Origin: Candidatus Harrisonbacteria bacterium
GTDB taxonomy: Bacteria > Patescibacteriota > Minisyncoccia > UBA6257 > 1-14-0-10-40-38
Length of the DNA stretch: 64,000 nt
Reading direction: 5' to 3'
NCBI GenBank assembly: GCA_023245035.1
Contig: JAHFLD010000001.1
Location: 83,285-147,284, forward strand
Shown: in pieces, positions 39,604 through 64,000 of the stretch
How positions within the stretch are numbered: position 1 is the stretch's first letter
Layout of the letters: the number at the start of each line of letters is the position of its first letter
Notes under the pieces: model-generated
What the model saw: the letters and a program-made list of their open reading frames with translations, nothing else
Told to the model about the DNA's origin: nothing
Databases searched by the model: none
Position numbers and translations under genes: made by a program

Positions 39604-39720
39604 GAGAACTCCTTGTGTTGTTTCAAAGAACCATTCCAATTAAGCCAAAAAAACCGGTATTTAGCAAGTGTTCGGTAACCGGAATTGAAGCTCGGGCGAT
39701 TCCATGATACGGTGGCCAAA

Positions 39721-43475: not shown

Positions 43476-43478
43476 TCC

Positions 43479-48139: not shown

Positions 48140-49114
48140 ATGAAAACCGCCTTAATTACCGGCATCACCGGTCAGGACGGCTCCTATCTGGCCGAATTCC
48201 TGCTTAAGAAAAAATACCATGTTTTTGGTTTGGAGCGGCGCACTAGCAAGCGTAACCGCGAAAGCATTGAGCATCTTATAGACAAAGTTGAACTGCTTTC
48301 CGGCGATTTATTGGACGCGGAATCAATTACTCGTGCTCTCAAGCAATCAAAACCCGACGAAGTTTATAACTTAGCTTCGCAGTCATTCATTCCAGATTCC
48401 TGGCGGCAACCGGTATACACCGGTGAAGCCACCGGCCTCGGTGTCACTCGAATGCTTGAAGCAGTTCGGGAATTTGATCCAAATATAAAGTTCTATCAGG
48501 CCTCCACTTCGGAAATGTTCGGCAAAGTTCGGGCAACTCCGCAAAACGAAGGTACTCCCTTTCATCCGCGCAGCCCTTACGGCGTGGCTAAACTCTATGG
48601 TCATTGGATAACGATTAATTATCGGGAATCCTATGGTATGTTCGCGGTATCGGGAATTTTATTCAATCACGAATCTCCCCGCCGCGGCTTGGAATTCGTA
48701 ACTCGAAAAATTACCCACACAGCAGCCAAAATTAAGCTGGGATTAGCCAAGGAATTGCGCCTGGGCAACACTAGCGCTGAACGTGATTGGGGCTTTGCCG
48801 GCGACTATGTTGAAGCAATGTGGCTCATGTTGCAACAGGAAAAACCGCAAGATTATGTTATCGCGAGCGGGGAGACGCATTCGGTAGAAGATTTTGTACA
48901 GGCAACATTCAAGTATCTTAAACTCGATCCAAAAAAGTACGTAAAAATTGATAAGAAGTTTTTCCGACCAGCGGAAACGGATTATCTCCGAGGTGATGCC
49001 GGTAAAGCCCGGCGTGAACTCGGCTGGAAACCGAAAGTCGGTTTTGAAAAATTGGTGCAAATGATGGTTGATGCCGATCTCGCGGCTCTCTCTTCTTCAA
49101 AGATATCCAAATAA
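48140..49114 (+). CDS. gmd: GDP-mannose 4,6-dehydratase
   Basis: [19 protein letters not shown] with the SDR YxxxK ([10 protein letters not shown]); a full-length match to the GMD family pattern. Confidence 0.9.
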
Positions 49115-49119
49115 TAAAT

Positions 49120-50454
49120 ATGAAAAAAGCAATGGTCTCAAAAAATAATCCTGAATTGTGTCGAGCGGTTAATAATTGTCGTTCCTGTGGCTTTGCTCCA
49201 CTTGTCGATATTTTGTCGTTGGGGGATCAATACGTGTCTAATTTTATTGAGAGCCATGACAAGCTAAAAGACGAAAAAAAATATCCTTTAGAACTGGTGC
49301 TTTGCGATGTTAGTGTCGGAGGGTGTGGACTCTTGCAACTTCGCCACACAGTTTCCCCGGAGAAAATGTATAGAACTTACTGGTATTTTTCGGGGATGAA
49401 CAAAACCATGACCGATGAACTCGCTAACATCGCGCAAACCGCGGAAAAAATCACTAATCCAAAAAAGGGGGATATTGTTGTTGATATTGGCTGCAACGAC
49501 GGAACGCTACTCAAATCATATCAAACGCCGGGCTTGGTGCGCGTTGGTTTTGAACCGGCAAAAAATCTGGTACCTCTCGCTAAAAAAATCGCCACCAAAG
49601 TTTTCAATGAATTCTTCGGATCAACGCCTTTCACTAAGGCTTATGGTCGCAAAAAAGCCAAAGTAGTCACCGCTATTGCTATGTTTTACGACTTAGACGA
49701 CCCCAATGCTTTCGTGTCGAGCGTCAAAAAAATTCTGGACCAAAAAGGTATCTTCATAATCCAGATGAACTATCTCGCTTCTATGTTGACTTTGAATGCT
49801 TTTGACAATATCGGTCACGAACACTTGGAATATTATTCCTTGCTCTCATTGGAATATTTGCTGAAACGGCACGCTTTGGAAGTGTTCGATGTAGAACTAA
49901 ATCCGATTAACGGCGGTAGCTTCCGTGTTTATATTCGTCATCAAGGAAGTATGGTCGGCAACGAGCGACAAGGGCGCCAGAAGCGGCGAGCCGAACTTCT
50001 CGCTACAGAAAAAAAGATGGGATTAAACAAGCGCCCAGTTTACGATAAGTTTGTAAAACGAGTTCATGACATTCGCCAAAAAGTTACCTCTTTCATAAAT
50101 TCCGAAACCAAACAGGGTCGGAAAGTTTACATCTATGGCGCCTCCAACCGCGGCAACACCTTACTCCAGTTTTTTGGGTTGGATTCAAAAGTTATCACCG
50201 CCGCCGCCGAACGCAATCCGGTCAAATGGGGAATGAAGACCATTGGTACAAATATTCCCATTATCTCGGAGGCGCAGGCTCGTGAAGAGAAACCTGACCA
50301 CTTTTTGGTTCTCCCCTGGGCTTTTCTCAAAGAATTTATAAATCGGGAAAAAGAATATCTGGCTTCCGGTGGGCGCTTCATTGTTCCCTTGCCGACAATG
50401 AAAATAATCTCGAGCGATGATCTGAAACCGGAATCCAAGACTACTGGCGTTTAG
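49120..50454 (+). CDS. sugar C-methyltransferase-family protein (N-terminal zinc ribbon, SAM MTase domain, C-methyltransferase C-terminal domain)
   Basis: CxxC...CxxC zinc-binding N-terminus (CRAVNNCRSCGF). SAM motif (VVDIGCNDG). Architecture of TylCIII/NovU-type NDP-hexose C-methyltransferases. Confidence 0.75.
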   Translation: MKKAMVSKNNPELCRAVNNCRSCGFAPLVDILSLGDQYVSNFIESHDKLKDEKKYPLELVLCDVSVGGCGLLQLRHTVSPEKMYRTYWYFSGMNKTMTDELANIAQTAEKITNPKKGDIVVDIGCNDGTLLKSYQTPGLVRVGFEPAKNLVPLAKKIATKVFNEFFGSTPFTKAYGRKKAKVVTAIAMFYDLDDPNAFVSSVKKILDQKGIFIIQMNYLASMLTLNAFDNIGHEHLEYYSLLSLEYLLKRHALEVFDVELNPINGGSFRVYIRHQGSMVGNERQGRQKRRAELLATEKKMGLNKRPVYDKFVKRVHDIRQKVTSFINSETKQGRKVYIYGASNRGNTLLQFFGLDSKVITAAAERNPVKWGMKTIGTNIPIISEAQAREEKPDHFLVLPWAFLKEFINREKEYLASGGRFIVPLPTMKIISSDDLKPESKTTGV

Positions 50455-51002
50455 AAAAAATCCGCCTGGAGAAAAATAGTATCGTACAAATCCAATATCG
50501 CCCGGTGCACGCCGGCGCTGATAAGTTCTTGTCGGTCAAAGGCGATCAGTCCTTTGGATGCTTCATATTCTTCCGGATCCAGATGAGAACCCGCTTCCCG
50601 AATCTCTGTCGGTGTAAGCTTGATCGTAAAATTATAAGCCAAGTGATCCGTGGCGTGATTTTGTGGCGCCTCCTTCCGATCGCGAAAAAAATATCGATGC
50701 ATCGAAACAAAGCCAAATCGCTCGTCGGGAATCTTGAGAGAAGTTTCTCGGGCAAAACATCGCGCCGCCGCCGCCTTTTCGTTTTCCCCAACAAACATCC
50801 GGCCGCCAATCAGCCATAAGCCACTACAGGGTTTAACCTTGCGCGTCGCGAGATAAACAATTTTTCGCTCTCGGTCAATCGGGATTATATCTGCGGAAAC
50901 TATAATCAAAGAATCCAGCACACTTGCGTAGGTTTTCTCCGGTAAAAAGATCGGAGTCGAGGGTCTAGCGTCGTCGTCTTTATAAAAACTGGGTTGAAGC
51001 AT
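50451..51002 (-). CDS. NUDIX hydrolase (possibly a GDP-sugar hydrolase of the Gmm/NudD type)
   Basis: Nudix box (GGRMFVGENEKAAAARCFARETSL). About 180 aa, next to gmd. Confidence 0.6.
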   Translation of the reverse strand: MLQPSFYKDDDARPSTPIFLPEKTYASVLDSLIIVSADIIPIDRERKIVYLATRKVKPCSGLWLIGGRMFVGENEKAAAARCFARETSLKIPDERFGFVSMHRYFFRDRKEAPQNHATDHLAYNFTIKLTPTEIREAGSHLDPEEYEASKGLIAFDRQELISAGVHRAILDLYDTIFLQADFF

Positions 51003-51049
51003 AAAAATTATGTTACTTTATCTCCCGAGCAGATGTTTATCATAATAAC

Positions 51050-51574
51050 ATGGCTCATTTATCAGCCTACAAATTCTGCTCCGTCTGCGCTGGAAATCTC
51101 CGCGAAAAAAACGGCCACCTCGCCTGCGCCAAGTGTCCTTTCGTGAATTATCAAAACCCGCGACCCACCGTCAGTGGCCTCATTATGCATGGGGATAAAA
51201 TTCTCTTCACCCGCCGCGGCCGAGACCCCTACAAGGGTTGGTGGGACTTTCCCGGCGGCTTTATGGATTGGGGGGAGCACCCGGAAGAAACCCTGCGCCG
51301 CGAAATTAAAGAAGAAACCGGTTTAGATATTGCCGTTAAGCGCATCGTCGGAATCTATCCCGGATACTATCCGGCCAAGTTCGATCCGGTACACATTTTA
51401 AGCATCGCCTACTACGCCGTTGCCAAGACCGACAAGGTTGTTCCCGCCGACGACGCCGAAGAGGGGAGGTGGTTCCCGCTCACGAAGCTCCCTAAAAAAA
51501 TCGCCTTCAACAACCACGCTCGCATCCTCTCCGATTTCAAAAAGGTCTTGTGGTCGGCACCCGACATAGCTTGA
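51050..51574 (+). CDS. NUDIX hydrolase with an N-terminal zinc ribbon
   Basis: CxxC...CxxC (CSVCAGNL...CAKCPF). Nudix box (PGGFMDWGEHPEETLRREIKEETGL). Confidence 0.75.
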   Translation: MAHLSAYKFCSVCAGNLREKNGHLACAKCPFVNYQNPRPTVSGLIMHGDKILFTRRGRDPYKGWWDFPGGFMDWGEHPEETLRREIKEETGLDIAVKRIVGIYPGYYPAKFDPVHILSIAYYAVAKTDKVVPADDAEEGRWFPLTKLPKKIAFNNHARILSDFKKVLWSAPDIA

Positions 51575-51825: not shown

Positions 51826-52626
51826 ATGTCCCAACTCATAAAAGAACTGCCCTGGGATTCCAACCACTTCAAGGTGAAAATTGGTCGGTACCTGCCGACC
51901 ACCATCGCCGACCCCGATCAAGAAAAGAGCTTTCGCCAAGAGTTCTTTGCAGGAAAGTTTGACTGCGTCTATGCGATGCTCGACGCAAGCGATGTACACT
52001 CGCGCGAAGCAGCCGCTCGAAATCAGTTTTTCTTGGGCGACATCCGAATGAGCTACGCACTCACGAAGAAAGATTGGTTCCCGAAAGAACCGCAAAGGCG
52101 GCAAGGAACGATTCCCGCGGAAATTCGCTTCTTGAATCCGGATAACGCGGAGCAGGTGGCGCAAGTCAAGGTATTGTCCCGCGATCTTTCGGTTGTCAGT
52201 CGTTTTCATTTCGATGAGCGCTTTCGCCCCTATGTCGCCGATATGTACGAGATTTGGGCGGGCAACTTCATTAAGCCCAAGACCCCAACCGATCTTCCGG
52301 TCAAAACCGTCATCGCCCTTAAAAATGGCTGGGTGGCTGGTTTTATCGGCAACAAGATTGTTGAAGAAGAAAAAGACGGGCAAAAAGTTCGTCACGGCGA
52401 GGTAGTGCTCGTGGCCACCCATTCCGATTTTCGTGGCCAAGGCTTCGGTCGCGCGATGAGTGAAAAGAGTATTGACTGGTGCTTTGAACAGGGTGCCGAG
52501 TTCGTCACCGTTGATACGCAGGGCAACAACTACCAAGCCTCACGCCTCTACGAGAGTGTTGGCTTTCGTCTGCAGGACATGAAGCTGATCTACCACGTCT
52601 GGAAGCAATACGGCTTCAACAAGTAG
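51826..52626 (+). CDS. two-domain GNAT-family N-acyltransferase (WecD-like architecture)
   Basis: C-terminal acetyl-CoA-binding GNAT motif (HSDFRGQGFGRAMSE ... NYQASRLYESVGFR). AAGGAG upstream. A strong terminator follows. The 312-aa minus-strand ORF overlapping it is rejected. Confidence 0.7.
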   Translation: MSQLIKELPWDSNHFKVKIGRYLPTTIADPDQEKSFRQEFFAGKFDCVYAMLDASDVHSREAAARNQFFLGDIRMSYALTKKDWFPKEPQRRQGTIPAEIRFLNPDNAEQVAQVKVLSRDLSVVSRFHFDERFRPYVADMYEIWAGNFIKPKTPTDLPVKTVIALKNGWVAGFIGNKIVEEEKDGQKVRHGEVVLVATHSDFRGQGFGRAMSEKSIDWCFEQGAEFVTVDTQGNNYQASRLYESVGFRLQDMKLIYHVWKQYGFNK

Positions 52627-52700: not shown

Positions 52701-53843
52701 ATGGCAAACCCAAACCAGCGTCTCAAACTGCTCCTCTTGACCAACGACCTTGGCGTCGGCGGCGTTCAGCGCTTGGTGATTGATTTTGCCGCCATGCTTG
52801 ACCATCAGGTTTTTGACATTCATGTTGCCACCCTCCTCGACACCAAAGACGGCGATTTTTATCGGAGCGAACTTAGACCAGAGACTCCCTATCGCGCCTT
52901 CAAAATGAAAAGTCCCTGGCAGATAGCCCAGTGGTTCAAGGTCTATCGTTATCTCAAACGCGAAAAATTCGACATAGTTTTTAGCCAGCTCTTTGTTGCG
53001 GACACCATCGGTCGTATTGCTTCCAAGCTCGCCGGTGTTCCGCTTATCGTTACCGAAATTCAAAACATTATTCCGACTCTGCCCAAGTGGTACACCTGGA
53101 TTGATCACCAGCTTTCCAAAATTACCGATGTCTGTATTTCCACCACTCAAGCCGTAACCGATTACGGCGTTAATGTTGTCGGCTTTCCGCGAGAAAAAAT
53201 CGTCCTCGTGCCGACTAACGCCGTTGATCATCGCCGCTTTCTAAACCCGCCCGATCCGCAAAAATTTCGGCATGAGTTTGGTCTGCCAAGCGACGCCAAA
53301 ATCATCGTCAACATCGGTCGGATGGTGGAGCAAAAAGGCCAGATCTTTCTGATTCGCGCCATGAAAGAAGTTATTGAACGCGAACCCAAGGCCTACGCGC
53401 TCGTTGTCGGCTCCGGTGGTTTGGAAGAGAACTTGAAGGCCGAAGCCGAAAAACTAAATCTCGGCGATCACCTAAAATTCCTCGGCACGCGCAAAGACAC
53501 CCCGCATCTTTTGATGGGTAGCGATGTCTTCGCTTTTCCTTCTATCTACGAGGGTCAGGGATTAATTCTCTTTGAATCTTTTTTTTCCAAAATTCCCATC
53601 GTGGCCTCGGACACCGGCGGCATTCCCGATGTCATCAAGCACGAAGAAACCGGCTTGCTCTCGCCCCCCGGAGACGAGCACGCTCTAGCAAAAAACATTT
53701 TGCGGGTGCTAAATGATCCCACGCTCGGCAAAAAAATGGCAGCAGAGGCCTATCGGAGATATCAAGACAGAACTCTGGAGCAATCAATGAAAAAACTTGG
53801 TCAGGTGCTAATTGAAGCCTTTCGGCAAAAAACTCGCGTTTAA
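52701..53843 (+). CDS. glycosyltransferase family 4 (GT-B)
   Basis: LLLLTNDLGVGGVQRLVIDFA and YEGQGLILFESFFSKIPIVASDTGGIPDVIKHEETGLL. Confidence 0.8.
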   Translation: MANPNQRLKLLLLTNDLGVGGVQRLVIDFAAMLDHQVFDIHVATLLDTKDGDFYRSELRPETPYRAFKMKSPWQIAQWFKVYRYLKREKFDIVFSQLFVADTIGRIASKLAGVPLIVTEIQNIIPTLPKWYTWIDHQLSKITDVCISTTQAVTDYGVNVVGFPREKIVLVPTNAVDHRRFLNPPDPQKFRHEFGLPSDAKIIVNIGRMVEQKGQIFLIRAMKEVIEREPKAYALVVGSGGLEENLKAEAEKLNLGDHLKFLGTRKDTPHLLMGSDVFAFPSIYEGQGLILFESFFSKIPIVASDTGGIPDVIKHEETGLLSPPGDEHALAKNILRVLNDPTLGKKMAAEAYRRYQDRTLEQSMKKLGQVLIEAFRQKTRV

Positions 53844-53896: not shown

Positions 53897-55093
53897 ATGA
53901 AAAAAGATATCGGCCTAAAACCAGCCAAAAAGTTCATCGTCTTCGGCAAACCGTCTATCGGCCAAGATGAGATTCGCGCCGTAACCGAAGTCTTGAAATC
54001 CGGCTGGATCGGCACCGGCCCCAAAGTTAAAGAGTTTGAAGTGGAATTCGCGAAATATGTTGGTGCCAAACACGCGGTCGCGGTCAGTCATTGCACCGGC
54101 GGACTCCACATCGCGCTCGAAGCGGTTGGCGTCGGCCCGGGCGACGAAGTCATCGCGCCCTCGCTAACTTTTGCCGCCACTATCAATGCCATTGAATACG
54201 CCGGAGCTACGCCGGTCTTGGTTGATGTTGATCCAAAAACGCACAACCTTGACCCGAAAGCGATTGAGCGCGCCATTACCAAAAAGACCAAGGCCATTAT
54301 GCCGGTCCACTTTGGCGGCTTGGCCTGCGACCTAAAGGCGATTTTTGCGCTCGCCAAGAAACACAACTTATTCGTGATTGAAGACGCGGCTCACGCCATG
54401 GGTACCGTTTACCAGGGCACGCGCATCGGCGGCTTCAAAAACTCCCTCGCCGTTTTTAGTTTTTATCCCAACAAAAATCTGACCTCAATCGAAGGGGGAA
54501 TGATTACGACTAATTCCAAAAAACTCGCCCGCAAGCTGGAGGTTTTGAGTTTGCATGGCATGGATAACGAGGCCTGGAAACGCTACAAGAGCGGCACCAA
54601 GTTGATTCTCTACGAAGTCGTAAGCCGCGGTTACAAATACAACATGACCGATATTCAGGCGGCGGTTGGCTTGGTTCAGCTCAAAAAATTTGACGCCATG
54701 CAAAAGAAGCGGGAAGAATACGCCAAAGTTTACGAGAAGTATTTTGGCAACCTCCAAGGCATCTCACTTCAGGAAAAACCCAACGACCAGAAAAACAAGC
54801 ACGCGCTTCACCTCTATACATTGGTTATGGATTTGCCCAAATTCAAAATAGACCGCAATGAGATGGTCTCACTCATCAAATCGCACAACATCGGCGCCGC
54901 GATTCACTACAAGGGCATTCATCTTCATTCCCACTTTAAGCGAACCCTAAAGCATGATCCGGCGACACTCCCGCATACCACTCGCATTTCCGAAAGTATC
55001 TTTTCTTTGCCGCTCACGCCCGTCATGTCGCTCTCCGATGCGCACTATATTGGCAAAACCGTCCGCGCCCTCGTTGAAGCCAATTATGTCTAA
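53897..55093 (+). CDS. DegT/DnrJ/EryC1/StrS-family PLP-dependent sugar aminotransferase (ArnB/perosamine-synthase-like)
   Basis: Family N-terminus (FGKPSIGQDEIRAVTEVLKSGWIG) and the PLP-lysine region (SFYPNKNLTSIEGGMITT). Confidence 0.9.
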   Translation: MKKDIGLKPAKKFIVFGKPSIGQDEIRAVTEVLKSGWIGTGPKVKEFEVEFAKYVGAKHAVAVSHCTGGLHIALEAVGVGPGDEVIAPSLTFAATINAIEYAGATPVLVDVDPKTHNLDPKAIERAITKKTKAIMPVHFGGLACDLKAIFALAKKHNLFVIEDAAHAMGTVYQGTRIGGFKNSLAVFSFYPNKNLTSIEGGMITTNSKKLARKLEVLSLHGMDNEAWKRYKSGTKLILYEVVSRGYKYNMTDIQAAVGLVQLKKFDAMQKKREEYAKVYEKYFGNLQGISLQEKPNDQKNKHALHLYTLVMDLPKFKIDRNEMVSLIKSHNIGAAIHYKGIHLHSHFKRTLKHDPATLPHTTRISESIFSLPLTPVMSLSDAHYIGKTVRALVEANYV

Positions 55094-56261
55094 AATCAGA
55101 GTAGGAATTTTTGCTGATGACCTGGCTCGTTCCGCCATGGGCACCGCGCTTGTCTTGCGACGCTTACTCGGTGAATTTCAGAAAAGCCATACGCCCGAAA
55201 TCGATGTTGTCTTGATTCATAAATCCGAAACCGAGTTTCCTGTGGAATTTAAAAAGTTTCTCAAAGTCGTAGTCCCCAAAATACACACGGCAAAATTCTC
55301 CGGCTTTTTTTCTTACCTTAGATTCTTTGTCACTACCCGAGAACGCTTCGACATTATCCACATTCCCCGTCCCGCGCTCCATCCATTTTTTTGGCTGTTA
55401 AAATTATTGGGAAAGACTAAAAAAATTATCGTTACTTTTCATGGCGCGCCAGACGACGATTCGATTCCCATCTTCGAAACTGCCTTCACTAAATTTAATC
55501 GCGGATTAATAAAACATTGGGGAAAGTACTGGATTGATTCGGCCATTGCCGACTCCAAAACCGGTCGAGAGCAAATTGTCCGTTACTATAAATTAAGGAG
55601 AGAAAAAACCGAAGTTATCTATCCGGGCGTTGATTCGGTGTATCATTCGCTTAGCGATCAAGAAAGAATTGAAGCGCAAAAAAAACTCCATCATAAGTAC
55701 GGCGTTGCCTCGCCATATGTGCTCTGCGTCAGTCGCCTTGATCCGCATAAAAATGTCCATCGCACGATTGAGGCTTTTGTAAAAGCTAAGGGTGAAGCAA
55801 ATTTTCCGCACGAACTAATAATCGTTGGCTCTAAACATGAGCCAGTTTATTCTCATCTCGTTGAAGAAACCGTTAAACGCCTCCAAGCCGAAAAATTCAT
55901 CAAAATAATTCCCTTCGTCGAAGAAATCGATTTACCGTGCCTGTATGCGGCCTCTGATTTCTTTATTTTTGCTTCGCTCTCCGAAGGCTTCGGCCTCCCT
56001 CTGGTTGAGGCAATGGCTTCGGGAATTCCGGCCATAACTTCAGATCGCTCTTGTTTACCCGAAATCGCCGGGGGTGCGGCCTTGCTCGTTGATCCCTATA
56101 ACATCATAAAGATCGCCGAAACAATCAGGACGCTAGCATCGGTTAGAACAGAAGTCCGCCATGCAATCGCTGAACGTGGCCAGAAGCGTGCTAGCGAATT
56201 CAAATGGGAAACAACCGCCCAAAAAACAGCCAATCTTTACAGGTCAGTCGCGAATACCTAA
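55086..56261 (+). CDS. glycosyltransferase family 4 (GT-B)
   Basis: SEGFGLPLVEAMASGIPAITSDRSCLPEIAGGAALLVDP. Start at the internal ATG; it overlaps the DegT stop by 8 nt. Confidence 0.8.
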   Translation: MSKIRVGIFADDLARSAMGTALVLRRLLGEFQKSHTPEIDVVLIHKSETEFPVEFKKFLKVVVPKIHTAKFSGFFSYLRFFVTTRERFDIIHIPRPALHPFFWLLKLLGKTKKIIVTFHGAPDDDSIPIFETAFTKFNRGLIKHWGKYWIDSAIADSKTGREQIVRYYKLRREKTEVIYPGVDSVYHSLSDQERIEAQKKLHHKYGVASPYVLCVSRLDPHKNVHRTIEAFVKAKGEANFPHELIIVGSKHEPVYSHLVEETVKRLQAEKFIKIIPFVEEIDLPCLYAASDFFIFASLSEGFGLPLVEAMASGIPAITSDRSCLPEIAGGAALLVDPYNIIKIAETIRTLASVRTEVRHAIAERGQKRASEFKWETTAQKTANLYRSVANT

Positions 56262-56279
56262 ACTACCCCTACCAAATCC

Positions 56280-57350
56280 ATGATTAACCCCGCGAAAAAA
56301 CTAAAAGGCAAGACCGTTCTAGTTACCGGTGGCGCCGGTTTTATCGGCTCTCACTTAATAGATCGCCTCTTAAGCTATGGCGCGCGAGTCATTTGCTTTG
56401 ACGATCTATCAACTGGCCGCCAAGAATACATTGACTCAAAAAAAGATGACCGAAATTTTATCTTTATCAAAGGCGATGCCAATGAAATGAAGGATATTAA
56501 AAAAGCCTTTAGCCATGGTCCGGTTGATTATGTTTTTCACTACGCCGCTCTGGTGGGGGTTCAGCGGACCATTGAAGAACCACTAAAAGTTTTGAAAGAT
56601 ATTGACGGCATCAAGCACATCTTGGAACTCGCGCTTCAGCACAAGATTAAAAAAATCGCCTACGCCTCTTCTTCCGAAATATATGGCAACCAAGAAAAGA
56701 TGCCTCTGCACGAGGAAAATTCCTATTACGACATCAAAATGCCCTACGCGCTGGTTAAGTCAGCCGGGGAGAATTTTTTCCGGAGCCACTGGGAATTATC
56801 TGGGGTGCCGGTTGTTATCTACCGCTTCTTCAACGCTTATGGTCCGCGACAAGCAAGCTCAATGTATGGCTTTGTGACCGGGGTATTTATTTCCCAGGTT
56901 TTGCAGAATATACCACCGACCATTTTTTACGACGGCAAACAAACCAGGGATTTCATGTATATCGATGACAACATCGAGGCCTCGATTCAAGGACTTTTAA
57001 ATGACAAGACCACCGGAGAAACAATCAATCTTGGCACCGGCCGGGAAACTACCATTCTTGAGCTAGCCAACAAAATCATCAAAATCTCCGGAAAGAAGCT
57101 TAAGCCATCCTTGTTAAACAAAAGAAATTTAATAGAAATCAAACGGCGAGTAGCAGACACCGCGAAAATGAAAAAAATAATTGGTTACAGACCGCGCGTT
57201 TCCTTGGAAGACGGCCTCCGACGAACTTATGATTGGTACGCCAACAATCCACAATTCATCGCGCAAGGGGAGCGGACGACTTACGCCTGGCGAAAGAAAA
57301 ATGTCTGGGCACCGATTAAAAAATCAAGCAAAACCAAGAAGAAGTCCTAA
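56280..57350 (+). CDS. NAD-dependent epimerase/dehydratase (extended SDR; UDP-glucuronate decarboxylase / UDP-sugar 4-epimerase-like)
   Basis: VLVTGGAGFIGSHLIDRLL, YxxxK (YALVK). Length 356 aa. Confidence 0.85.
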   Translation: MINPAKKLKGKTVLVTGGAGFIGSHLIDRLLSYGARVICFDDLSTGRQEYIDSKKDDRNFIFIKGDANEMKDIKKAFSHGPVDYVFHYAALVGVQRTIEEPLKVLKDIDGIKHILELALQHKIKKIAYASSSEIYGNQEKMPLHEENSYYDIKMPYALVKSAGENFFRSHWELSGVPVVIYRFFNAYGPRQASSMYGFVTGVFISQVLQNIPPTIFYDGKQTRDFMYIDDNIEASIQGLLNDKTTGETINLGTGRETTILELANKIIKISGKKLKPSLLNKRNLIEIKRRVADTAKMKKIIGYRPRVSLEDGLRRTYDWYANNPQFIAQGERTTYAWRKKNVWAPIKKSSKTKKKS

Positions 57351-57351
57351 A

Positions 57352-58620
57352 CTAACGCCAAACGAGAGGTAATTTTCTGATCAATCCATTTTCCACGAAC
57401 TTATCCAGATAGTCTTTGACCACGGAAAATTCCATTCCTAATTCCTCGGCAATCTCAAAAACACTCTGCCGGCCCTCAAGTCGCAACATAATTTGCTCCA
57501 GAAATTGGTTGAGTTTTTTATTATTCCGCCAGTCTACCCAAAGACCATATCGCGAAAGGAAAACCGGTCCTTTAAAAAGACGCTGCGGAACATAGTCTTC
57601 TTCAATCACGCGCAGCACGGCCAAAACCAAATCGCGTGAAGCCACAAGACGTTCCTCGGTGATAATCGCCGGAGTATCGTCGCTAGTGTGATATTCGGGG
57701 TAATGAGGAAATCCGGGCTTGGCCCGGCTAAGTGAGATCATCGGTACATCCACGCCCGGTCCATTGAAAGCCATTTCATCGTTGCCGACTATGGAGCGAA
57801 ATGGTCCGATAATATGATTCGGCGCTTGGGTTGCAAGAACTGCTTGTGCCACTCGATCAAGATAAGTCTTTCCCTGAAGAGTGTGTTGCAAAGCGAAGGG
57901 CTGGTTATTGCCGAGCATCTCCAAAAAGATTCCCGCCTTAAAACCCGGAACCAATTTTTCGTTTTGACTCAAGTAAGCAATGGAACCGATAGTCTCTGGA
58001 ACGAACAGAAGGCGATAAGTAAAATGCGGTTTTTTAACGGCGAGCTCCTTCGCTAGATCAACCAAAACCGCCACGCCCGAAAGATCGTCATTGGCTTGTC
58101 CCGGGTGGCAAAGGTGGGCCACTAGAGCAATCGTCTCCTCTGTTTTGCCCTTAATCAGACATTCGCCAACGCTTAAGTTGCTTGGCTCAAAAGATGAGTC
58201 AATTAGCACGCGATATTCCGATTCAGTGAATTGAGGCAACTTTTCATGTTGTAAGCAAAATCCCCAATCGCGCTCATAATATTTAAACTCATAAGGTATG
58301 GCGTTCGGGCGATCCGGTCGAGTATGGATATGTGTCAAAAGTTCTTCACGAGACACAACGCGGTTGATCGGCAAGGAATATGAAATCACGTGCAGTGGAT
58401 GATCTTTCAAATCAAGCAACTTCTGACCGGATGTGGTTGCGATATAAGCCTCGCGCACACTCCAGCGTTCCGGAACTTTCCAAGTCCAGCATTCGGTTCC
58501 GCTGGAGTAGCGCAGAATCTTAAGCGGAATTTGCCGGCCGATGTATTCCAAAGCTTCATCAAAACCAGCTGAAACCAAGTCGCGCCGCTTTAGATATAAG
58601 TCCTCAATTAGTTGTTTCAT
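57352..58620 (-). CDS. M28-peptidase-like (DUF2172/DUF4910-type aminopeptidase-like domain) protein with a C-terminal winged-helix domain
   Basis: Zn-ligand-like motifs of the M28 fold (HLCHPG, NDDLSG, VPETIG, YHTSDD). C-terminal wHTH-like segment (VFEIAEELGMEFSVVKDYLDKFVENGLIRK). Start uncertain, placed at the internal Met so as not to overlap the divergent formyltransferase. Confidence 0.6.
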   Translation of the reverse strand: MKQLIEDLYLKRRDLVSAGFDEALEYIGRQIPLKILRYSSGTECWTWKVPERWSVREAYIATTSGQKLLDLKDHPLHVISYSLPINRVVSREELLTHIHTRPDRPNAIPYEFKYYERDWGFCLQHEKLPQFTESEYRVLIDSSFEPSNLSVGECLIKGKTEETIALVAHLCHPGQANDDLSGVAVLVDLAKELAVKKPHFTYRLLFVPETIGSIAYLSQNEKLVPGFKAGIFLEMLGNNQPFALQHTLQGKTYLDRVAQAVLATQAPNHIIGPFRSIVGNDEMAFNGPGVDVPMISLSRAKPGFPHYPEYHTSDDTPAIITEERLVASRDLVLAVLRVIEEDYVPQRLFKGPVFLSRYGLWVDWRNNKKLNQFLEQIMLRLEGRQSVFEIAEELGMEFSVVKDYLDKFVENGLIRKLPLVWR

Positions 58621-58714
58621 TTCCTTGATGTAACTATACGCATCTGACCAAGCGTTAACAATAGAACCCGCGATTGGGTCTATGAAGTTTGTACCTTTAC
58701 AATCGGAGATCTCC

Positions 58715-59428
58715 ATGAAAATTGCCCTCCTCATGACCGAAGAAAACATTGTCGGTCGAGAGATTCTACTGCACGCTTTGAAAGCCGAACCAGCCGTGAA
58801 AATAGGTCTAGTGATCGTTGAAATAGGTGAACGAGCCAACAAAGAAAAGGTCTACCTCAGAAATGACTTTCACAATCCGCCAACTTTTGCAGAAGCGCTC
58901 AACTTGCTCCGAAAGAAAAACGCAGCGGCAGATCATACGACGATAGTGGTTCAAACCGGAAATCTGAACAACGACGCCGTCGCTCGTTGCTTGCTGGAAT
59001 ATAGCCCAGATTTGATCTTGTTGGACGGATCCACGATCATCAAGAAAAAAATTTTTGAAACGGCGAGGATTGGCGCGGTTAACTCTCACCCGGGTCTTCT
59101 GCCAAAGTATCGTGGTGTTGATTCAGTTCGCTGGGCGATATATCACGGCGATCCAGTCGGAACCACCTGCCATCTGGTAAATGATGGCATTGATACTGGC
59201 CCCATTCTTCTAATGGAAGAAGTGCCCTACGAAAAAGGAATGTCGCTGCTAGAGATTCGTGTCAGCGCAATGATCGCCGGTGTTCGTCTGATGATTGATG
59301 CCGTACAAAGACTGGCAGATGGAGTGTTGTCTCCTAAATCGCAATCCAACGAAGGTGCCAACTACTTTTCCTGGGCTCCAGTAGAAGTTCAAAATGCTGT
59401 TGAAGCCAAGCTATCAGTGAACACCTAA
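58715..59428 (+). CDS. formyltransferase-family protein (Fmt/PurN/ArnA-N-like; candidate sugar N-formyltransferase)
   Basis: Formyl_trans_N signature (VNSHPGLLPKYRGVDSVRWAIYHGDPVGTTCHLVNDGIDTGPIL). Start placed at the internal Met (MKIALLMTE). Confidence 0.8.
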   Translation: MKIALLMTEENIVGREILLHALKAEPAVKIGLVIVEIGERANKEKVYLRNDFHNPPTFAEALNLLRKKNAAADHTTIVVQTGNLNNDAVARCLLEYSPDLILLDGSTIIKKKIFETARIGAVNSHPGLLPKYRGVDSVRWAIYHGDPVGTTCHLVNDGIDTGPILLMEEVPYEKGMSLLEIRVSAMIAGVRLMIDAVQRLADGVLSPKSQSNEGANYFSWAPVEVQNAVEAKLSVNT

Positions 59429-59450
59429 GCCCCTTACCGGGGCTTTTTTA
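59428..59450 (+). terminator. rho-independent terminator
   Basis: aagcccc ttacc ggggctt followed by ttttat, immediately after the formyltransferase stop. Confidence 0.6.
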
Positions 59451-59534: not shown

Positions 59535-60614
59535 ATGAAACTAACCAAAAAAATCATTATCGCCGCCCATGATGCCGGCGGCATGGACTCACTCATACCG
59601 GTTATCGGTAAATTATTTCAAGATTCGTCCTACGAAGTCACTTGTCTGGTACACGGCCCGGCCAAAAAATTATTGGATCAGCGCCAGTATCGCTATGCTG
59701 ATGCCGACACCTTAAGCGACGCCGAACTTGAAATGTTGGTTGTGGATGTCGCACCCGATGTAATTCTAACCGGAACAAGTAGCGGCCTGACCATTGAAAA
59801 GAAGCTTCTCAAAATCGCTCAAGCCAAAAAAATTCCCACCGTCGCCATTATTGATTTTTGGATTAACTACAATCTCCAATTTAGTTTTGCCGCGAAAGGC
59901 AAAGCCAAAGCAGTCGACCTACCCGATTTAATTTTGGTCATGGATGATCTAGCTAAGCGCGAAATGATTGCCGAAGGATTTCCGGAAGAGAAAATTGTCA
60001 TCACCGGCAACCCTCATTTTGAAAGTTTCAAAATATTCCCCCCGCCGCCGGTGGAAAATCAGAACATCGTTTTTATTGATCAGGGTTTTTCCGGTCTCTA
60101 TCACGAGGGGTTCCACGAAAATATGGGTTTTGACGAAATCGAAGTCATGCGTGATTTAATCCGCGCGCTTTCGGAAATGGGCTTCGCTGGAAAAGTTATA
60201 GTCAAATTTCATCCCGCCACTCAAAACCGCGCCAAATATGATGCCCTAGTAAAACCGACTTCAATTAAAATTGAACTGGACAGCAAAGACACCCTCGAAA
60301 AATCTTTAGCCGAAAGCCGACTGGTAGTTGGTATGACCTCCATGGCGCTTTTCGAAGCGGCGCTTGGCGGTAAGATTGTTATCAGTTATCAACCCCATCC
60401 CGCCCGACTGCCTGATCCGCTTATCAGCAATCGACTTGGCCTTTCTCATTTCGCCTACAATTACGGCGACTTCAAAAAAATATTAACCAAAACATTATTG
60501 GGCAAAGCCAAACAAGAAATTAATCAATCACTCATTGACCAATACACCAAAAACCACGCCACCCTAAAAGTGATTGAAGAAATCGAAAAACTTATCGCCG
60601 TAAAGAAAGATTAG
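59535..60614 (+). CDS. GT-B-fold enzyme (PseG/MurG-like UDP-sugar hydrolase or glycosyltransferase)
   Basis: N-terminal Rossmann strand (KKIIIAAHDAGGMDSLI). C-terminal GT-B nucleotide-binding-like segment (MTSMALFEAALGGKIVISYQP). Position between the formyltransferase and a cytidylyltransferase. Start uncertain (GTG 59478, ATG 59502 or ATG 59535). Confidence 0.45.
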   Translation: MKLTKKIIIAAHDAGGMDSLIPVIGKLFQDSSYEVTCLVHGPAKKLLDQRQYRYADADTLSDAELEMLVVDVAPDVILTGTSSGLTIEKKLLKIAQAKKIPTVAIIDFWINYNLQFSFAAKGKAKAVDLPDLILVMDDLAKREMIAEGFPEEKIVITGNPHFESFKIFPPPPVENQNIVFIDQGFSGLYHEGFHENMGFDEIEVMRDLIRALSEMGFAGKVIVKFHPATQNRAKYDALVKPTSIKIELDSKDTLEKSLAESRLVVGMTSMALFEAALGGKIVISYQPHPARLPDPLISNRLGLSHFAYNYGDFKKILTKTLLGKAKQEINQSLIDQYTKNHATLKVIEEIEKLIAVKKD

Positions 60615-60652: not shown

Positions 60653-61399
60653 ATGCCAAATATCGTCTGCATTATCCAAGCTCGCAGTGGTTCTACCCGC
60701 TTGCCGAATAAGGTATTCTTACAGCTCCAAGGTAAAGCCATTCTGCTTCGCGTGATTGATCGTGTGCTGGAGTCAAAACGAATCAATCAAATTGTTGTGG
60801 CAACAACCGTAAAACCAAACGATGAAAAAATCGTTGACCTCGTCAAAAATTATAATCCCAAAGTAAGTGTGACCCGTGGTTCCGAAGAAGACGTTCTTGA
60901 TCGCTATTACCAGGCGGCCAAGGGAGTAAGCGCCGACATCGTCGTTCGCGTTACCTCCGACAACCCCTGTCTTGATCCCGAGGTAATGGATCAGGCGATC
61001 GAACTTTTTTTGAGCGATCCAAAAATGGATTATGTCTCCAACAACATCGGCGAACACACCTATCCCCGCGGACTTGATATCGAAGTCATCCGCTTTTCAA
61101 CTCTCGAGAGTCTTTGGAAAACGACAACCGAACCAATTGACCGCGAGCACGTGACCATTCACCTTAAGCGCTTTCCGGATCACTACGTTTGGAAAACACT
61201 CAAAAACAGCGAAGACCTCTCTGTCTATCGTTTCACCGTAGACGAAGATGTTGACTACAAACTAGTCGAACAAGTCTACAATGAACTCTTTCCTCAAAAT
61301 CCCAACTTTCGCCTCAAGGATATTATTGCCTTGATGCGGAACCGTCCCGAACTCGCAAAAATCAATCAACAAGTTGAGCAACAAAACAAAAAATACTAA
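60653..61399 (+). CDS. acylneuraminate/nonulosonate cytidylyltransferase family (SpsF/PseF-like)
   Basis: IVCIIQARSGSTRLPNKVFLQLQGKAIL matches the CTP_transf_3 N-terminus. Confidence 0.75.
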   Translation: MPNIVCIIQARSGSTRLPNKVFLQLQGKAILLRVIDRVLESKRINQIVVATTVKPNDEKIVDLVKNYNPKVSVTRGSEEDVLDRYYQAAKGVSADIVVRVTSDNPCLDPEVMDQAIELFLSDPKMDYVSNNIGEHTYPRGLDIEVIRFSTLESLWKTTTEPIDREHVTIHLKRFPDHYVWKTLKNSEDLSVYRFTVDEDVDYKLVEQVYNELFPQNPNFRLKDIIALMRNRPELAKINQQVEQQNKKY

Positions 61400-61450: not shown

Positions 61451-62785
61451 ATGACTAAACGAGATAAGCTAGCTCTTCTAGGCGGCAATCCGACTCTAAA
61501 GAAATCGGTTTCTGCCTACAATACCATCGGTTCAGAGGAAAAAGCCGCCGCGTTGCGGGTCATGAACAGCAAAAACCTCTCAGGTTTTTTGGGCCGCGCC
61601 GGCGATCGCTTTCGCGGCGGTCCGGAGGTTCGCGCCTTTGAAGAAAATTTTGAAAAAAAATTTGGCGTTAAGCACGCCATAAGCTTTAACTCCGCCACTA
61701 CCGCCCTCCAGGCCGCCGTTGGCGCGCTCGGTATCGGTCCCGGTGACGAAGTTATTACCACGCCGATGACGATGCCGGCCACAGCCACAGCTGTTCTGTT
61801 TAACGGCGCCGTTCCGGTTTTTGCGGATATAAATGAAAAAAATTATTGCCTTGACCCGCAGTCGGTGGCCAAAAAAATAAACTCTCGCACCAAGGCGATT
61901 TTTGTTGTTAATCTCTTTGGCACTCCGGCTGATTACGATGCCTTGCGCCTCATCGCCAAGCGCCACAATCTCAAAATTATTGAAGACAACGCCCAAGCGG
62001 CCGGCGCCAAATACAAAGGGCGGTTTGCGGGAACGATCGGGGATATTGGCGTTTGGAGTTTTAACGTCCACAAGATTATCCAATCTGGCGAAGGCGGTAT
62101 GCTCACTACGAACGATGATGGCTATGCCTACCGAGCCGAACTGATTCGTAATCATGGCGAAGCAGTCGTAGATGATATCTGGGAGACTAAGCCGGAGGAG
62201 CGGGAACTTGTCGCGGGAAGTAATTTTCGGCTAAGCGAACTTCACGCGGCGATTATGGGCGCCCAGCTGGCCAAGTTAGATGATCTAATTGCGAGTAGAA
62301 TTCATCTCGCGGCCTATCTGACAAAAAAAATAAAAGCGTCTGGCATAAAATGGTTGATTCCATTTGAATTAGTCAAAGGCGCTGTCAGTGCTCATTATCT
62401 TTATCCATTGCGCCTGCAAACTAAAATTATCGGTCTCCAGCGCGCAACTATCGCCAAGGCGCTGGCCGCTGAAGGTTTTACTTTGCAAGAAGGCTATCAA
62501 AAGCCGCTCTATCTGATGCCGATTTTCCAAGCCAAGAGAATCTTCCCCCGAACTCAATTTCCTTTTATCTCTCGCGAATTTCCTCACCCGAATCTAGATT
62601 ACAAACCCGGGTTGTGTCCGGTAGCTGAGCGTCTTTATGGGGAAGAGCTGGTAATGTCGAAATTGTGCCAACCGCCTCACACCACCCAACACATTGATGC
62701 TTTTATGGAAGCTATCAAGAAAATATCCGCTAACGCCGGCGAACTGAAGAAGTGGGAAACGGCGCAAAAGATCGCCAACCCTTAA
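61451..62785 (+). CDS. DegT/DnrJ/EryC1/StrS-family PLP-dependent sugar aminotransferase (PseC/LegC-like)
   Basis: PLP-lysine region (SFNVHKIIQSGEGGMLTT) and overall family conservation. 444 aa. Confidence 0.85.
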   Translation: MTKRDKLALLGGNPTLKKSVSAYNTIGSEEKAAALRVMNSKNLSGFLGRAGDRFRGGPEVRAFEENFEKKFGVKHAISFNSATTALQAAVGALGIGPGDEVITTPMTMPATATAVLFNGAVPVFADINEKNYCLDPQSVAKKINSRTKAIFVVNLFGTPADYDALRLIAKRHNLKIIEDNAQAAGAKYKGRFAGTIGDIGVWSFNVHKIIQSGEGGMLTTNDDGYAYRAELIRNHGEAVVDDIWETKPEERELVAGSNFRLSELHAAIMGAQLAKLDDLIASRIHLAAYLTKKIKASGIKWLIPFELVKGAVSAHYLYPLRLQTKIIGLQRATIAKALAAEGFTLQEGYQKPLYLMPIFQAKRIFPRTQFPFISREFPHPNLDYKPGLCPVAERLYGEELVMSKLCQPPHTTQHIDAFMEAIKKISANAGELKKWETAQKIANP

Positions 62786-62806: not shown

Positions 62807-64000
62807 ATGCTAGAAATTAATCTTGGCCCAATCAAAATCGGCAAAAATCATCCCTGTTTTATCGTGGCCGAAGCCGGAGCTAATCACGATGGGGATTTTA
62901 ATAAGGCCAAACAGCTTGTTGATGCCGCCGCCGAGACCAAGGCCAGCGCCATAAAATTTCAGCATTACACCGCCGGCAAACTCGCCTCCAAAGAAGCCAA
63001 GCGTTATTGGTTTGTTCACGGCGACGCCCAAGGCTATCAATTCGACCCCAATACCTACAAAGAATCTCAAATTGAAACCTTTAACAAAATTGACGGCATC
63101 CCGCGCGACAAAGACGCCGAACTCATCGCCTACGCCACAAAAAAAGGAATCGCTACCTTCTCCACGCCTTTTGATTTTGAATCGGTTGATCATTTGGACT
63201 CCCTTGGTACCCCGATGTTCAAAATCGCCTCCGGCGATCTGACCTATCACGATTTCTTGCGTTATGTATCCAGCAAGGGTAAGCCGGTCATTTTATCAAC
63301 CGGCGCCGCTACCATGGAAGAAATTCACGCCGCGGTGCGCGTTATCAAATCCACCGGCAATAATCAAATCATTCTTTTGCACTGCACCTTGGCCTATCCG
63401 ACCCCGTTGGAACACGCCAATCTCCGCATGATGAAAAACCTGGAGCAGGAATTTCCCGACTGTCTAATTGGCCTTTCCGATCACACGCCGGGAGTTGAAG
63501 CCGACGTAGCCGCCGCCATGCTGGGCGCGGTCATGATTGAAAAACATTTCACGCATACCCCGGGTCATGCGGCGGGGGACGATAAGGTCGGCGACAGCCC
63601 CGATCACGATATTGGCATCGGTAAAAAAGAATTTACCGAACTTGTCCGGCGCGTCCGGGAGAACGAGTCCAAAAAAATCGGCGTCGCCTTTGGCTTGAGC
63701 TACCAAGCAGCGGTAGCCAAAATTGAGCAAGGAAAATTTCCTCAAGTTCTAGGTTCGTCTGCGTCTAAAGATATTGATTCCAAAGTTGAACTCAAAGCCC
63801 GAGCCCAAGCTCGTCGTAGTGTCGTCGCGGGGCGAATGATTAAAGGCGGTACCGTTATTACTCAAGTCATGCTCGGCGACGGTACCTTTGTAGTTAAGCG
63901 TCCGGGTACAGGCATCCCTCCTTACGCGATATCCACCCTTATTGGCAAGGTAATTAAAAACGATGTAACCGCCGACACGGTTCTAATCAGCGACCACTTC
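62807..64000 (+). CDS. NeuB-family nonulosonic acid synthase (sialic/pseudaminic/legionaminic acid synthase-like), 3' end beyond the window
   Basis: NeuB signature (IGKNHPCFIVAEAGANHDGD, FSTPFDFESVDHLDSLG, LLHCTLAYPTP, GLSDHTPG) and the start of a C-terminal SAF domain. No stop codon within the window. Confidence 0.85.
   Translation, partial: MLEINLGPIKIGKNHPCFIVAEAGANHDGDFNKAKQLVDAAAETKASAIKFQHYTAGKLASKEAKRYWFVHGDAQGYQFDPNTYKESQIETFNKIDGIPRDKDAELIAYATKKGIATFSTPFDFESVDHLDSLGTPMFKIASGDLTYHDFLRYVSSKGKPVILSTGAATMEEIHAAVRVIKSTGNNQIILLHCTLAYPTPLEHANLRMMKNLEQEFPDCLIGLSDHTPGVEADVAAAMLGAVMIEKHFTHTPGHAAGDDKVGDSPDHDIGIGKKEFTELVRRVRENESKKIGVAFGLSYQAAVAKIEQGKFPQVLGSSASKDIDSKVELKARAQARRSVVAGRMIKGGTVITQVMLGDGTFVVKRPGTGIPPYAISTLIGKVIKNDVTADTVLISDHF

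Follow-up and report, generated by a model that had tools for sequence, protein, structure and literature searches.

Within 64,000 nucleotides of Candidatus Harrisonbacteria DNA (GenBank assembly GCA_023245035.1, contig JAHFLD010000001.1, positions 83,285 to 147,284 of the forward strand; this whole stretch is called the window below), three nearby genes encode a DegT-family aminotransferase (DegT398), an extended short-chain dehydrogenase/reductase (SDR356) and a stand-alone formyltransferase (FT). An earlier reading of the letters alone (the sequence-only reading) interpreted these genes as ArnA-like chemistry split over separate genes and, together with genes upstream, as most of the pathway for lipid-linked 4-amino-4-deoxyarabinose (Ara4N) and its N-formylated form (Ara4FN). 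The analysis described here favors, with somewhat better than even confidence, a different assignment, namely that the three genes belong to a single conserved glycan module of about 25 kb, which occurs in bacteria of the candidate phyla radiation (CPR) and which has a nonulosonic acid (NulO) pathway at its core. As the best explanation of the cluster, it is judged moderately probable that its product is a sialic-acid-like nine-carbon sugar--that is, a NulO--which probably is N-formylated.

Each of the three genes is matched by its Pfam family far beyond chance and at the place given for it in the sequence-only reading. That inventory was right as to these genes, but did not mention a family-4 glycosyltransferase gene (GT4d) and a DUF4910 gene lying among them, nor a NeuB gene that follows downstream (Table 1). 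Domains were called here with Pfam, and subfamilies by means of the NCBIfam equivalog cut-offs; in addition, the E. coli K-12 Arn proteins, Ugd, GalE, RfbB, Gmd, Fmt and PurN, along with two UXS genes named by PGAP, served as tblastn references against the window, the 10 kb beyond its end (L001; 74 kb in all) and seven to eight related loci.

The gene content downstream of FT is that of a NulO cluster of the legionaminic- or pseudaminic-acid-like kind, with extra tailoring enzymes. FT, a divergent protein with a 2-epimerase fold (E2like), a cytidylyltransferase of the CTP_transf_3 family (CTP248), a second DegT aminotransferase (DegT444) and NeuB form one plus-strand run. NeuB, 3.4 kb downstream of FT and co-directional with it, has a reading frame that stays open to the end of the window; it scores 292 bits against the NCBIfam model NeuB_NnaB (cut-off 400) and 244 bits against PseI (cut-off 340). 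Beyond it, within L001, are genes for a DUF218 protein, a second CTP_transf_3 cytidylyltransferase, three GFO_IDH_MocA oxidoreductases (GFO), a B12-binding radical S-adenosylmethionine (radical-SAM) enzyme, a GNAT acetyltransferase with a weak match to PseH (GNAT203) and an AsnB-type amidotransferase.

A recurring gene order, [GNAT]-DegT398-GT4-SDR356-(DegT444)-DUF4910-FT-E2like-CTP-(DegT444)-NeuB-DUF218-CTP-GFO, is found at 40-90% protein identity in two metagenome-assembled genomes (MAGs) of Saccharibacteria (L008 and L009, the latter on CAYIWJ010000009.1), a Parcubacteria MAG (L002, which is also L007), a Harrisonbacteria MAG (L005, which is also L010), a metagenome lineage (L003/L004) and a Pacebacteria MAG (L096), which was reached through its SDR and in which every module gene is co-directional. 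E2like comes immediately after FT in six of seven lineages. The DUF4910 gene directly adjoins FT in six of the seven and lies within 3 kb of it in the other; DUF4910 and FT are divergent in five lineages and co-directional in L096. L003 has a second FT-E2like pair right after its NeuB-CTP genes, and in L002 and L008 FT stands beside the series E2like-rSAM-GNAT-GFO-GFO (rSAM denoting radical-SAM). GT4d is kept between DegT398 and SDR356 in L003, L009, L010 and L096, and CTP248 is 60-84% identical to its counterparts in the same four. By protein identity the window is closest to L009 (77-90% for most genes), in a mosaic pattern: DegT398 is 90% identical; NeuB, DegT444 and CTP248, 84-85%; FT, 51%; one of the GFO oxidoreductases (GFO336), 44%; and the second cytidylyltransferase, 37%. 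This points to gene replacement, or to fast divergence, of tailoring genes. Moreover, the FT slot of L096 is filled by a formyltransferase of a different lineage (71 bits against a profile of the FT clade), a case of non-orthologous displacement, which argues for selection on the slot rather than on a particular protein.

From these observations--gene identities, catalytic residues, synteny, gene fusions and the absence of Arn partners--the following scheme is proposed. SDR356 would oxidize C4 of an NDP-HexNAc and dehydrate it to the NDP-4-keto-6-deoxy-HexNAc, as LegB and Pal do; a DegT enzyme would then add the 4-amino group, with DegT398 the more likely candidate and DegT444 the alternative (DegT444 may instead act, together with the GFO oxidoreductases, on a later intermediate). 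FT would move a formyl group from N10-formyl-tetrahydrofolate (N10-formyl-THF) to a sugar amine, at the point where PseH, LegH or PglD normally acetylate. E2like would remove the nucleotide and epimerize C2, thereby releasing the free sugar; NeuB would condense this product with phosphoenolpyruvate; and a CTP_transf_3 cytidylyltransferase would make the CMP-sugar. The expected product would be an N-formylated 5,7-diamino-NulO, for which further tailoring by the GFO oxidoreductases, the radical-SAM/B12 enzyme and AsnB is possible. We infer the order of these steps, which of the amines receives the formyl group, what nucleotide carries the sugar and the role of SDR356 as the dehydratase. The logic of C4 oxidation, C4 transamination and N-formylation that had been termed ArnA-like thus probably holds, acting on a NulO precursor rather than on UDP-GlcA, whereas the Ara4N/Ara4FN pathway itself is not supported; and an N-formylated amino sugar, which was the product foreseen by the sequence-only reading, remains the most likely one.

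For FT, the ATG at 58715 is favored over the later start chosen by the gene caller because a GGAG lies 6 nt upstream of it. The residues by which N10-formyl-THF transferases are recognized, an Asn/His/Asp triad that is common to all formyltransferases and not specific to ArnA, had been named as something to be checked and are in place: none of N123, H125 and D160 varies among 11 orthologues, and they are almost without variation in 39 relatives. FT is, as had been supposed, a stand-alone enzyme and not a canonical Fmt: Pfam finds in it no C-terminal PF02911 (Formyl_trans_C) domain, and its score against TIGR00460 is 59 bits where the cut-off is 201.5. Nor is it PurN, given 55 bits against TIGR00639 (cut-off 150) and neighbors that are all glycan genes; nor, at the equivalog level, the N-domain of ArnA (46.5 bits against an NCBIfam cut-off of 777, again with PF02911 lacking).

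An AlphaFold2 (AF2) model of FT (pLDDT 95) has the formyltransferase fold, and Foldseek places FDH-N, Fmt, ArnA-N and WbkC all at TM scores of 0.65-0.71 to it (ArnA-N at 0.69-0.71). When the clade profile is run against the PDB, the scores are 72.6 bits for FDH-N, 68.7 for Fmt, 66.4 for LgrA-F, 66.3 for PseJ, 63 for WbkC and 58 for PurN, and lower for QdtF (52), VioF (50) and ArnA (44); the single sequence scores 37 bits with PseJ and 53 bits with WbkC. By sequence, profile, NCBIfam model and fold, FT is about equidistant from FDH-N, Fmt, LgrA-F, PseJ, WbkC, PurN and ArnA, so that it can be linked to no one characterized formyltransferase, with ArnA among the weakest matches by sequence. It is a clade of its own, and a rare one: a search of 1.84 billion representatives gave 198 clusters at E<=1e-30. 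In a word-indexed database, FT has 43 matches, about 11 of which are 42-55% identical to it.

Gene fusions offer further information on FT partners. P0166 joins an FT of the same clade to a GNAT with 51% identity to GNAT203 of this locus; P0247 is a fusion in the reverse order, GNAT then FT; and P0177 joins FT to a GFO_IDH_MocA oxidoreductase with 29% identity to GFO336. The link that these fusions provide is between FT and the genes on the NeuB side of the module, and does not extend to DegT398 or SDR356. In one case within the set of fused proteins (P0166, P0247, P0177 and P0306), the partner is an ectoine synthase domain. A scan of genomes with the FT profile returned 80 loci, only four of which have the glycan module. 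The other 76 (L011-L086) are 30-40% identical to FT and have housekeeping genes as neighbors (such as a class II aminoacyl-tRNA synthetase, PNP and HtrA), for which reason they are uninformative on the substrate of the clade; they show that Marine Group II archaea, Bathyarchaeia and Myxococcota widely carry stand-alone formyltransferases of some 230 aa.

Within SDR356 and its family the motif SSSE(V/I)YG is invariant, reading SSSE(133)IYG in SDR356 itself, where it is accompanied by Y156xxxK160. The residues S131-S132-E133 and Y156/K160 align with the TSE and YxxxK of ArnA-C and UXS, and Glu133 corresponds to the catalytic Glu in Gmd (TSE), RfbB (TDE), UXS and ArnA-C (TSE), a position at which GalE and the epimerase matches carry Ala, Gly or Thr. 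This Glu, typical of dehydratases and decarboxylases and of enzymes whose chemistry takes place at C5/C6, rules out a plain GalE-type epimerase, in agreement with the sequence-only reading, but it does not separate dehydratases from decarboxylases, as the S/T-S-E motif occurs also in Gmd, a 4,6-dehydratase. SDR356 has, in addition, a V-x-R-T segment as in RmlB and GalE, where UXS and ArnA have P-x-x-Y.

The overall scores of SDR356 are spread over several functions. Its best solved relatives are archaeal and Thermotoga UDP-GlcNAc/Glc 4-epimerases (161-163 bits), followed by Pal of the B. thuringiensis pseudaminic pathway (6bwl, 153 bits) and human UXS1 (132 bits). Its NCBIfam matches--RmlB 169 bits, LegB 162, GalE 162, the UXS-type model NF008872 70 (cut-off 294) and ArnA 63 (cut-off 777)--are all below cut-off, with the 162 bits extending over a whole model whose equivalog cut-off is 475. 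By tblastn, SDR356 is 34-36% identical to the PGAP-named rhizobial UXS (145-148 bits) and scores 104 bits with E. coli RfbB. Neither the PGAP names of plasmid tblastn matches nor the names carried by its homologues decide between dehydratase and decarboxylase.

Genomic context is what favors one function for SDR356. In L095 and L097, homologues that are 57-61% identical to it occur in the order AsnB-SDR-NeuB-Epimerase_2-CTP_transf_3, with no DegT or FT gene within 9 kb, so that SDR356 is tied to NeuB rather than to ArnB or FT. In L003 and L096, its orthologue overlaps the start of the DegT444 orthologue, which lies directly downstream. NeuB pathways need a C4-oxidizing dehydratase, and the module contains no candidate for it other than SDR356. 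We infer from this that SDR356 is the NDP-HexNAc C4-oxidizing 4,6-dehydratase of the NulO pathway. In L095 and L097, where GmhA/HddA/GmhB-like heptose genes and a transaldolase gene stand ahead of this series, CPR bacteria have another kind of NeuB cluster; as it has no aminotransferase, it suggests a non-aminated or differently derived ulosonic acid.

The description of DegT398 as ArnB-like stands as to family and as to its 41% identity with E. coli ArnB (280 bits by tblastn), but not as a specific assignment. Its best solved relative over the full length is ArnB (1mdo, 309 bits). It scores 390 bits against the NCBIfam ArnB model NF008658, where the cut-off is 631, and is as near to PseC (358 bits, cut-off 423). 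Among plasmid records, it is 44.6% identical to a DegT enzyme of the S. sonnei O-antigen, which we take to belong to a UDP-4-keto-6-deoxy-HexNAc pathway, 42-43% to arnB and 39.8% to B. thuringiensis pseC. As these NCBIfam, PDB and plasmid comparisons do not separate ArnB from PseC, DegT398 is predicted to be an NDP-4-keto-sugar 4-aminotransferase within a clade that includes ArnB, PseC and the S. sonnei enzyme. DegT444, for which the PDB matches are 3bn1 (181 bits), 2c7t (174 bits) and 5k8b (171 bits), has as its nearest relatives perosamine synthase, BtrR-type inosose aminotransferases and the Kdo8N aminotransferase KdnA.

E2like most likely performs the hydrolyzing 2-epimerase step, to judge from a profile match to the M. 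jannaschii 2-epimerase (E 4.8e-5) and a score of 26.7 bits, below the cut-off, against Epimerase_2 (PF02350). A role as a CMP-NulO transferase has some footing as an alternative: E2like weakly matches the BFO_1060 family of Tannerella NulO transferases (27.9 bits) and, among its homologues, some are fused to CTP_transf_3 and two unfused ones pass the Pfam cut-off for alpha-2,8-polysialyltransferase (PF07388). The relatives with such fusions or polysialyltransferase matches are P0320, P0321-P0323 and P0325, and the family as a whole sits between 2-epimerases and sialyltransferase-like GT-B proteins.

The DUF4910/DUF2172 family, of which CA_C2195 has a solved structure (PDB 3k9t), has been linked by gene neighborhood to spsE/spsF loci, with no function assigned and with no conventional metallopeptidase site, according to its structure paper (PMC4000134). 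In the module, where the DUF4910 gene separates SDR356 from FT and is transcribed divergently from FT in the window, its pairing with FT may be a lead to its function. A bolder proposal, regarded here as doubtful, is that DUF4910, FT and E2like make up an undescribed CPR tailoring unit that acts with GNAT, GFO, radical-SAM/B12 and AsnB proteins to yield a new class of N-formylated NulO, possibly C-methylated, amidated or tri-aminated, within which DUF4910 would be the missing partner of FT, for instance an N-deacylase that frees the amine for formylation. Because the structure paper reports no conventional metallopeptidase site (PMC4000134), the deacylase idea is kept as speculation only; if true, it would finally give DUF4910 a function.

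Several observations weigh against a NulO pathway as described. No enzyme of the cluster reaches the NCBIfam cut-off for LegB, PseC, LegC, PseH, PseI, NeuB or PseF and, all curated cut-offs having been missed, the subfamily assignments are made by context only. Neither the profile nor the fold brings FT nearer to PseJ than to Fmt, FDH or LgrA. The best solved relatives of SDR356 are 4-epimerases, and the PGAP-named UXS (148 bits) outscore RfbB. E2like shows the faint glycosyltransferase signals noted above, both in itself and in its homologues. A terminator-like hairpin directly follows FT, so that co-transcription with E2like is not assured: FT may be transcribed alone, or read-through into E2like may be attenuated. 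(The hairpin is a consensus match only, in a region whose count of promoter and terminator sites is not above shuffled expectation.) Finally, DegT398, GT4 and SDR356 are likewise conserved neighbors of FT, and synteny alone therefore leaves room for an FT substrate that is not a NulO precursor.

This last point leaves a real, though unlikely, alternative: that FT formylates a separate 4-amino-6-deoxy sugar (or 4-aminopentose) made by SDR356 and DegT398, which the adjacent family-4 glycosyltransferases transfer directly without feeding NeuB, much as VioF, WbkC or FdtF serve O-antigen loci. The triad DegT398-GT4d-SDR356 does stand beside DUF4910-FT in the window, L003, L009, L010 and L096; the nearest named relatives of DegT398 (the DegT of the S. 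sonnei AAT pathway and ArnB, the latter at 42%) act on UDP-4-keto sugars that end as glycan residues; and the FT profile is about as close to WbkC as to PseJ. However, the tightest partners of FT are E2like and DUF4910, along with GNAT203 and GFO by way of the fusions, and in L002 and L008 FT accompanies E2like-rSAM-GNAT-GFO, while the sequence covered there shows neither a DegT398 nor an SDR356 orthologue. A more obvious acylase for the DegT398 product is the adjacent two-domain GNAT266, which is found upstream of DegT398 also in L009 (74% identity) and L096 (30%). Its similarity to WecD, a dTDP-4-amino-4,6-dideoxygalactose acyltransferase, is weak and spans the whole length (NCBIfam model NF008212, covered in full at 42 bits, missing the cut-off of 219); GNAT266 is a possible N-acetyltransferase for the DegT398 product.

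The split ArnA envisaged by the sequence-only reading--with SDR356 as the UDP-GlcA C4-oxidase/decarboxylase, DegT398 as ArnB, FT as the ArnA N-domain, and UDP-Ara4FN passing to membrane-associated enzymes encoded upstream--is now given very little credence. What speaks for it has mostly been described: ArnB is the best solved relative of DegT398, SDR356 shares the T/S-S-E motif of UXS and ArnA-C and a third or so of its residues with the PGAP-named UXS, and FT has both the triad and the fold of ArnA-N. Furthermore, 10 kb upstream (window 42468-45795) there are genes for a polyprenyl-phosphate-type family-2 glycosyltransferase (GT2), a PF03706 (LPG_synthase_TM) protein and a PMT_2 GT-C, and the PF03706-PMT_2 pair is found upstream of the module in L096 as well. 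Yet the claim that every functional class of the pathway except ArnD is represented fails, as tblastn detected neither Ugd nor ArnD, ArnT or ArnE/F, whether across the 74 kb or at the related loci. As to the supposed ArnC-like GT2, E. coli ArnC matches two generic GT2 genes at about 30% identity, and the NCBIfam ArnC model gives 96 bits against a cut-off of 529; no ArnT model was matched by the supposed ArnT-like GT-C; indeed, the GT2, the PF03706 protein, the PMT_2 GT-C and a 576-aa membrane protein encoded nearby all have no family-level match to the ArnC or ArnT models. Every Arn cut-off of NCBIfam is missed widely (ArnA 46-63 versus 777 bits, ArnB and ArnC as given above). ArnA-C and SDR356 are 23% identical (66 bits), while ArnA-N aligns with only 97 aa of FT (about 32% partial identity, 45 bits), in line with the low ArnA score of the FT profile. 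SDR356 homologues track NeuB even where DegT and FT are absent; the V-x-R-T segment differs from the P-x-x-Y of UXS and ArnA (a difference whose discriminating value is itself a supposition); and DegT398 is equally close to PseC and to the UDP-4-keto-6-deoxy-HexNAc aminotransferase.

Least credible is the GDP-N-formylperosamine route that the sequence-only reading had offered as its own alternative, with Gmd (48140), DegT398 as perosamine synthase and a WbkC-like FT: the window does encode a genuine Gmd (48% identity with its E. coli counterpart; PF16363, 441 bits), perosamine synthases match DegT398 (230 bits) and DegT444 (181 bits) well and WbkC scores 53-63 bits with FT, but Gmd belongs to a cassette that is missing from the syntenic L096 (which keeps GNAT-DegT-GT4-SDR-DegT-DUF4910-FT), no Gmd lies within 10 kb of FT in L007-L010, and ArnB, PseC and WbgX-type enzymes are nearer relatives of DegT398 than perosamine synthase is. 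For the first two of these reasons, Gmd is regarded as part of an accessory cassette outside the conserved module. That cassette consists of four genes (window 48140-51574), for Gmd, a TylCIII-type NDP-hexose C-methyltransferase and two Nudix hydrolases, and suggests a second, strain-variable sugar, a C-methylated 6-deoxyhexose.

The NulO reading can be set beside known systems. It resembles the legionaminic and pseudaminic pathways (LegB/C/H/G/I/F and PseB/C/H/G/I/F; Pen/Pal/Pam of B. thuringiensis; SpsC-G of B. subtilis) in that every step class is represented: a candidate SDR dehydratase, DegT, an N-acyltransferase (FT as well as the PseH-like GNAT), a 2-epimerase-fold protein, NeuB and CTP_transf_3. 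PseC, LegC and LegB are, moreover, among the top NCBIfam matches, and SDR356 matches Pal. It differs in that scores stay below equivalog cut-offs and in its extra genes (a second DegT, three GFO oxidoreductases, radical-SAM/B12, AsnB, DUF218, DUF4910 and a second CMP-transferase), which imply a NulO derivative that is more extensively tailored and has not yet been described. Shared with the ArnA/ArnB system, which makes UDP-Ara4FN for lipid A, are an extended SDR with T/S-S-E, a DegT similar to ArnB and a formyltransferase with the N/H/D triad; unlike there, the Arn partners and the C-terminal subdomain of the formyltransferase are absent, and the genes are conserved together with NeuB and CMP-transferases, not with lipid A modification genes.

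Formyltransferases of NulO clusters are themselves known. PseJ is the formyltransferase of a pseudaminic-acid cluster (PDB 6ci2/6ci4); formyltransferases are carried by Geobacillus flagellin glycosylation islands; and in Halorubrum sp. PV6, the predicted formyltransferase HrrPV6_1050, beside legG, is assigned to 5-N-formyl-legionaminic acid (PMC6137143). Like PseJ and HrrPV6_1050, FT is small and single-domain, lacks the C-terminal domain of Fmt and ArnA, lies inside a NeuB-family cluster near the hydrolase/2-epimerase step and has an N-formyl NulO as its predicted product. Orthology to PseJ, however, is not demonstrable, its single-sequence and profile scores being the same as for Fmt, FDH and LgrA; and FT, unlike either, is paired with DUF4910 and a very divergent 2-epimerase-fold protein, and this in CPR bacteria. 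Loci of the CA_C2195 type likewise have DUF4910 among spsE (NeuB), spsF, NDP-sugar epimerase/dehydratase, N-acyltransferase and glycosyltransferase genes, but the near-obligate DUF4910-formyltransferase adjacency seen here is not reported in the available text of PMC4000134, from which the term 'formyl' is absent.

With N-formyl NulOs and NulO-cluster formyltransferases already known, the advance is incremental. New are the separate FT clade, the nearly constant company it keeps with DUF4910 and with a 2-epimerase-fold protein of great divergence, and the presence of so elaborate a NulO module in CPR bacteria; the top literature matches included no paper linking Saccharibacteria or Patescibacteria with nonulosonic acids, though this does not prove that none exists. 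Although CPR bacteria, Saccharibacteria among them, have very small genomes and a life attached to host cells, at least 35 kb are given to the surface-glycan locus, and for a sialic-acid-like sugar a role in host attachment or in immune or phage evasion is plausible. More generally, wherever an ArnB-like gene accompanies an SDR and a formyltransferase gene, NeuB should be looked for before polymyxin-resistance chemistry is called. Two targets for biochemistry are the rare FT clade and its near-obligate DUF4910 neighbor.

Table 1. Features of the glycan module between its upstream GNAT gene and the end of the window (window coordinates)
Feature	Position	Strand	Description
GNAT266	51826..52626	+	two-domain GNAT; PF00583, E 1.2e-14
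GT4c	52701..53843	+	family-4 glycosyltransferase; PF00534, E 5.9e-40
DegT398	53897..55093	+	398 aa, pyridoxal-phosphate-dependent DegT aminotransferase; PF01041, E 7.6e-129
GT4d	55086..56261	+	family-4 glycosyltransferase; PF00534, E 8.6e-29
SDR356	56280..57350	+	356 aa, extended SDR; PF16363 and PF01370, E ~1e-50
DUF4910/DUF2172 protein	57352..58620	-	M28-metallopeptidase-like domain and winged helix-turn-helix; PF16254, E 8.4e-74; PF09940, E 3.4e-34
FT (FT237)	58715..59428	+	237 aa; PF00551 only, E 6.4e-20
terminator-like hairpin	59427..59445	+	AAGCCCC-TTACC-GGGGCTT then TTTTAT, directly 3' of the FT stop codon
E2like	59535..60614	+	359 aa, divergent GT-B protein with predicted NDP-HexNAc 2-epimerase (NeuC/LegG/GNE) fold
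CTP248	60653..61399	+	SpsF/KdsB-like cytidylyltransferase (CMP-sugar synthetase family, CTP_transf_3); PF02348, E 3.2e-34
DegT444	61451..62785	+	second DegT aminotransferase; PF01041, E 1.1e-89
NeuB	62807..64000 (cut by window end)	+	full gene L001 11357-12556; PF03102 on full gene

Some details of this layout may be added. The start of GT4d overlaps the end of DegT398 by 8 nt; GT4c has orthologues in L009, L010 and L096; and the start of the DUF4910 gene was placed at 58620, as its orthologues align from that Met. Farther upstream, the first 26 kb of the window are ordinary chromosome, with genes for RNase Y, RecA, FtsK, HtrA and ClpB. Two large proteins are encoded just upstream of the glycan locus: one, of 1221 aa (22332-25997), has an N-terminal peptidoglycan-binding domain only, and the other, of 661 aa (15569-17554), is without a Pfam match, as is the 576-aa multi-pass membrane protein at 39685-41415. 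The glycan locus is flanked by two B12-binding radical-SAM enzymes (window 38116-39639, minus strand; L001 15245-16801, plus strand). The one on the downstream side shows 63-65% identity among four CPR lineages, where it always adjoins the PseH-like GNAT, and hints at radical C-methylation or another radical tailoring of the sugar.

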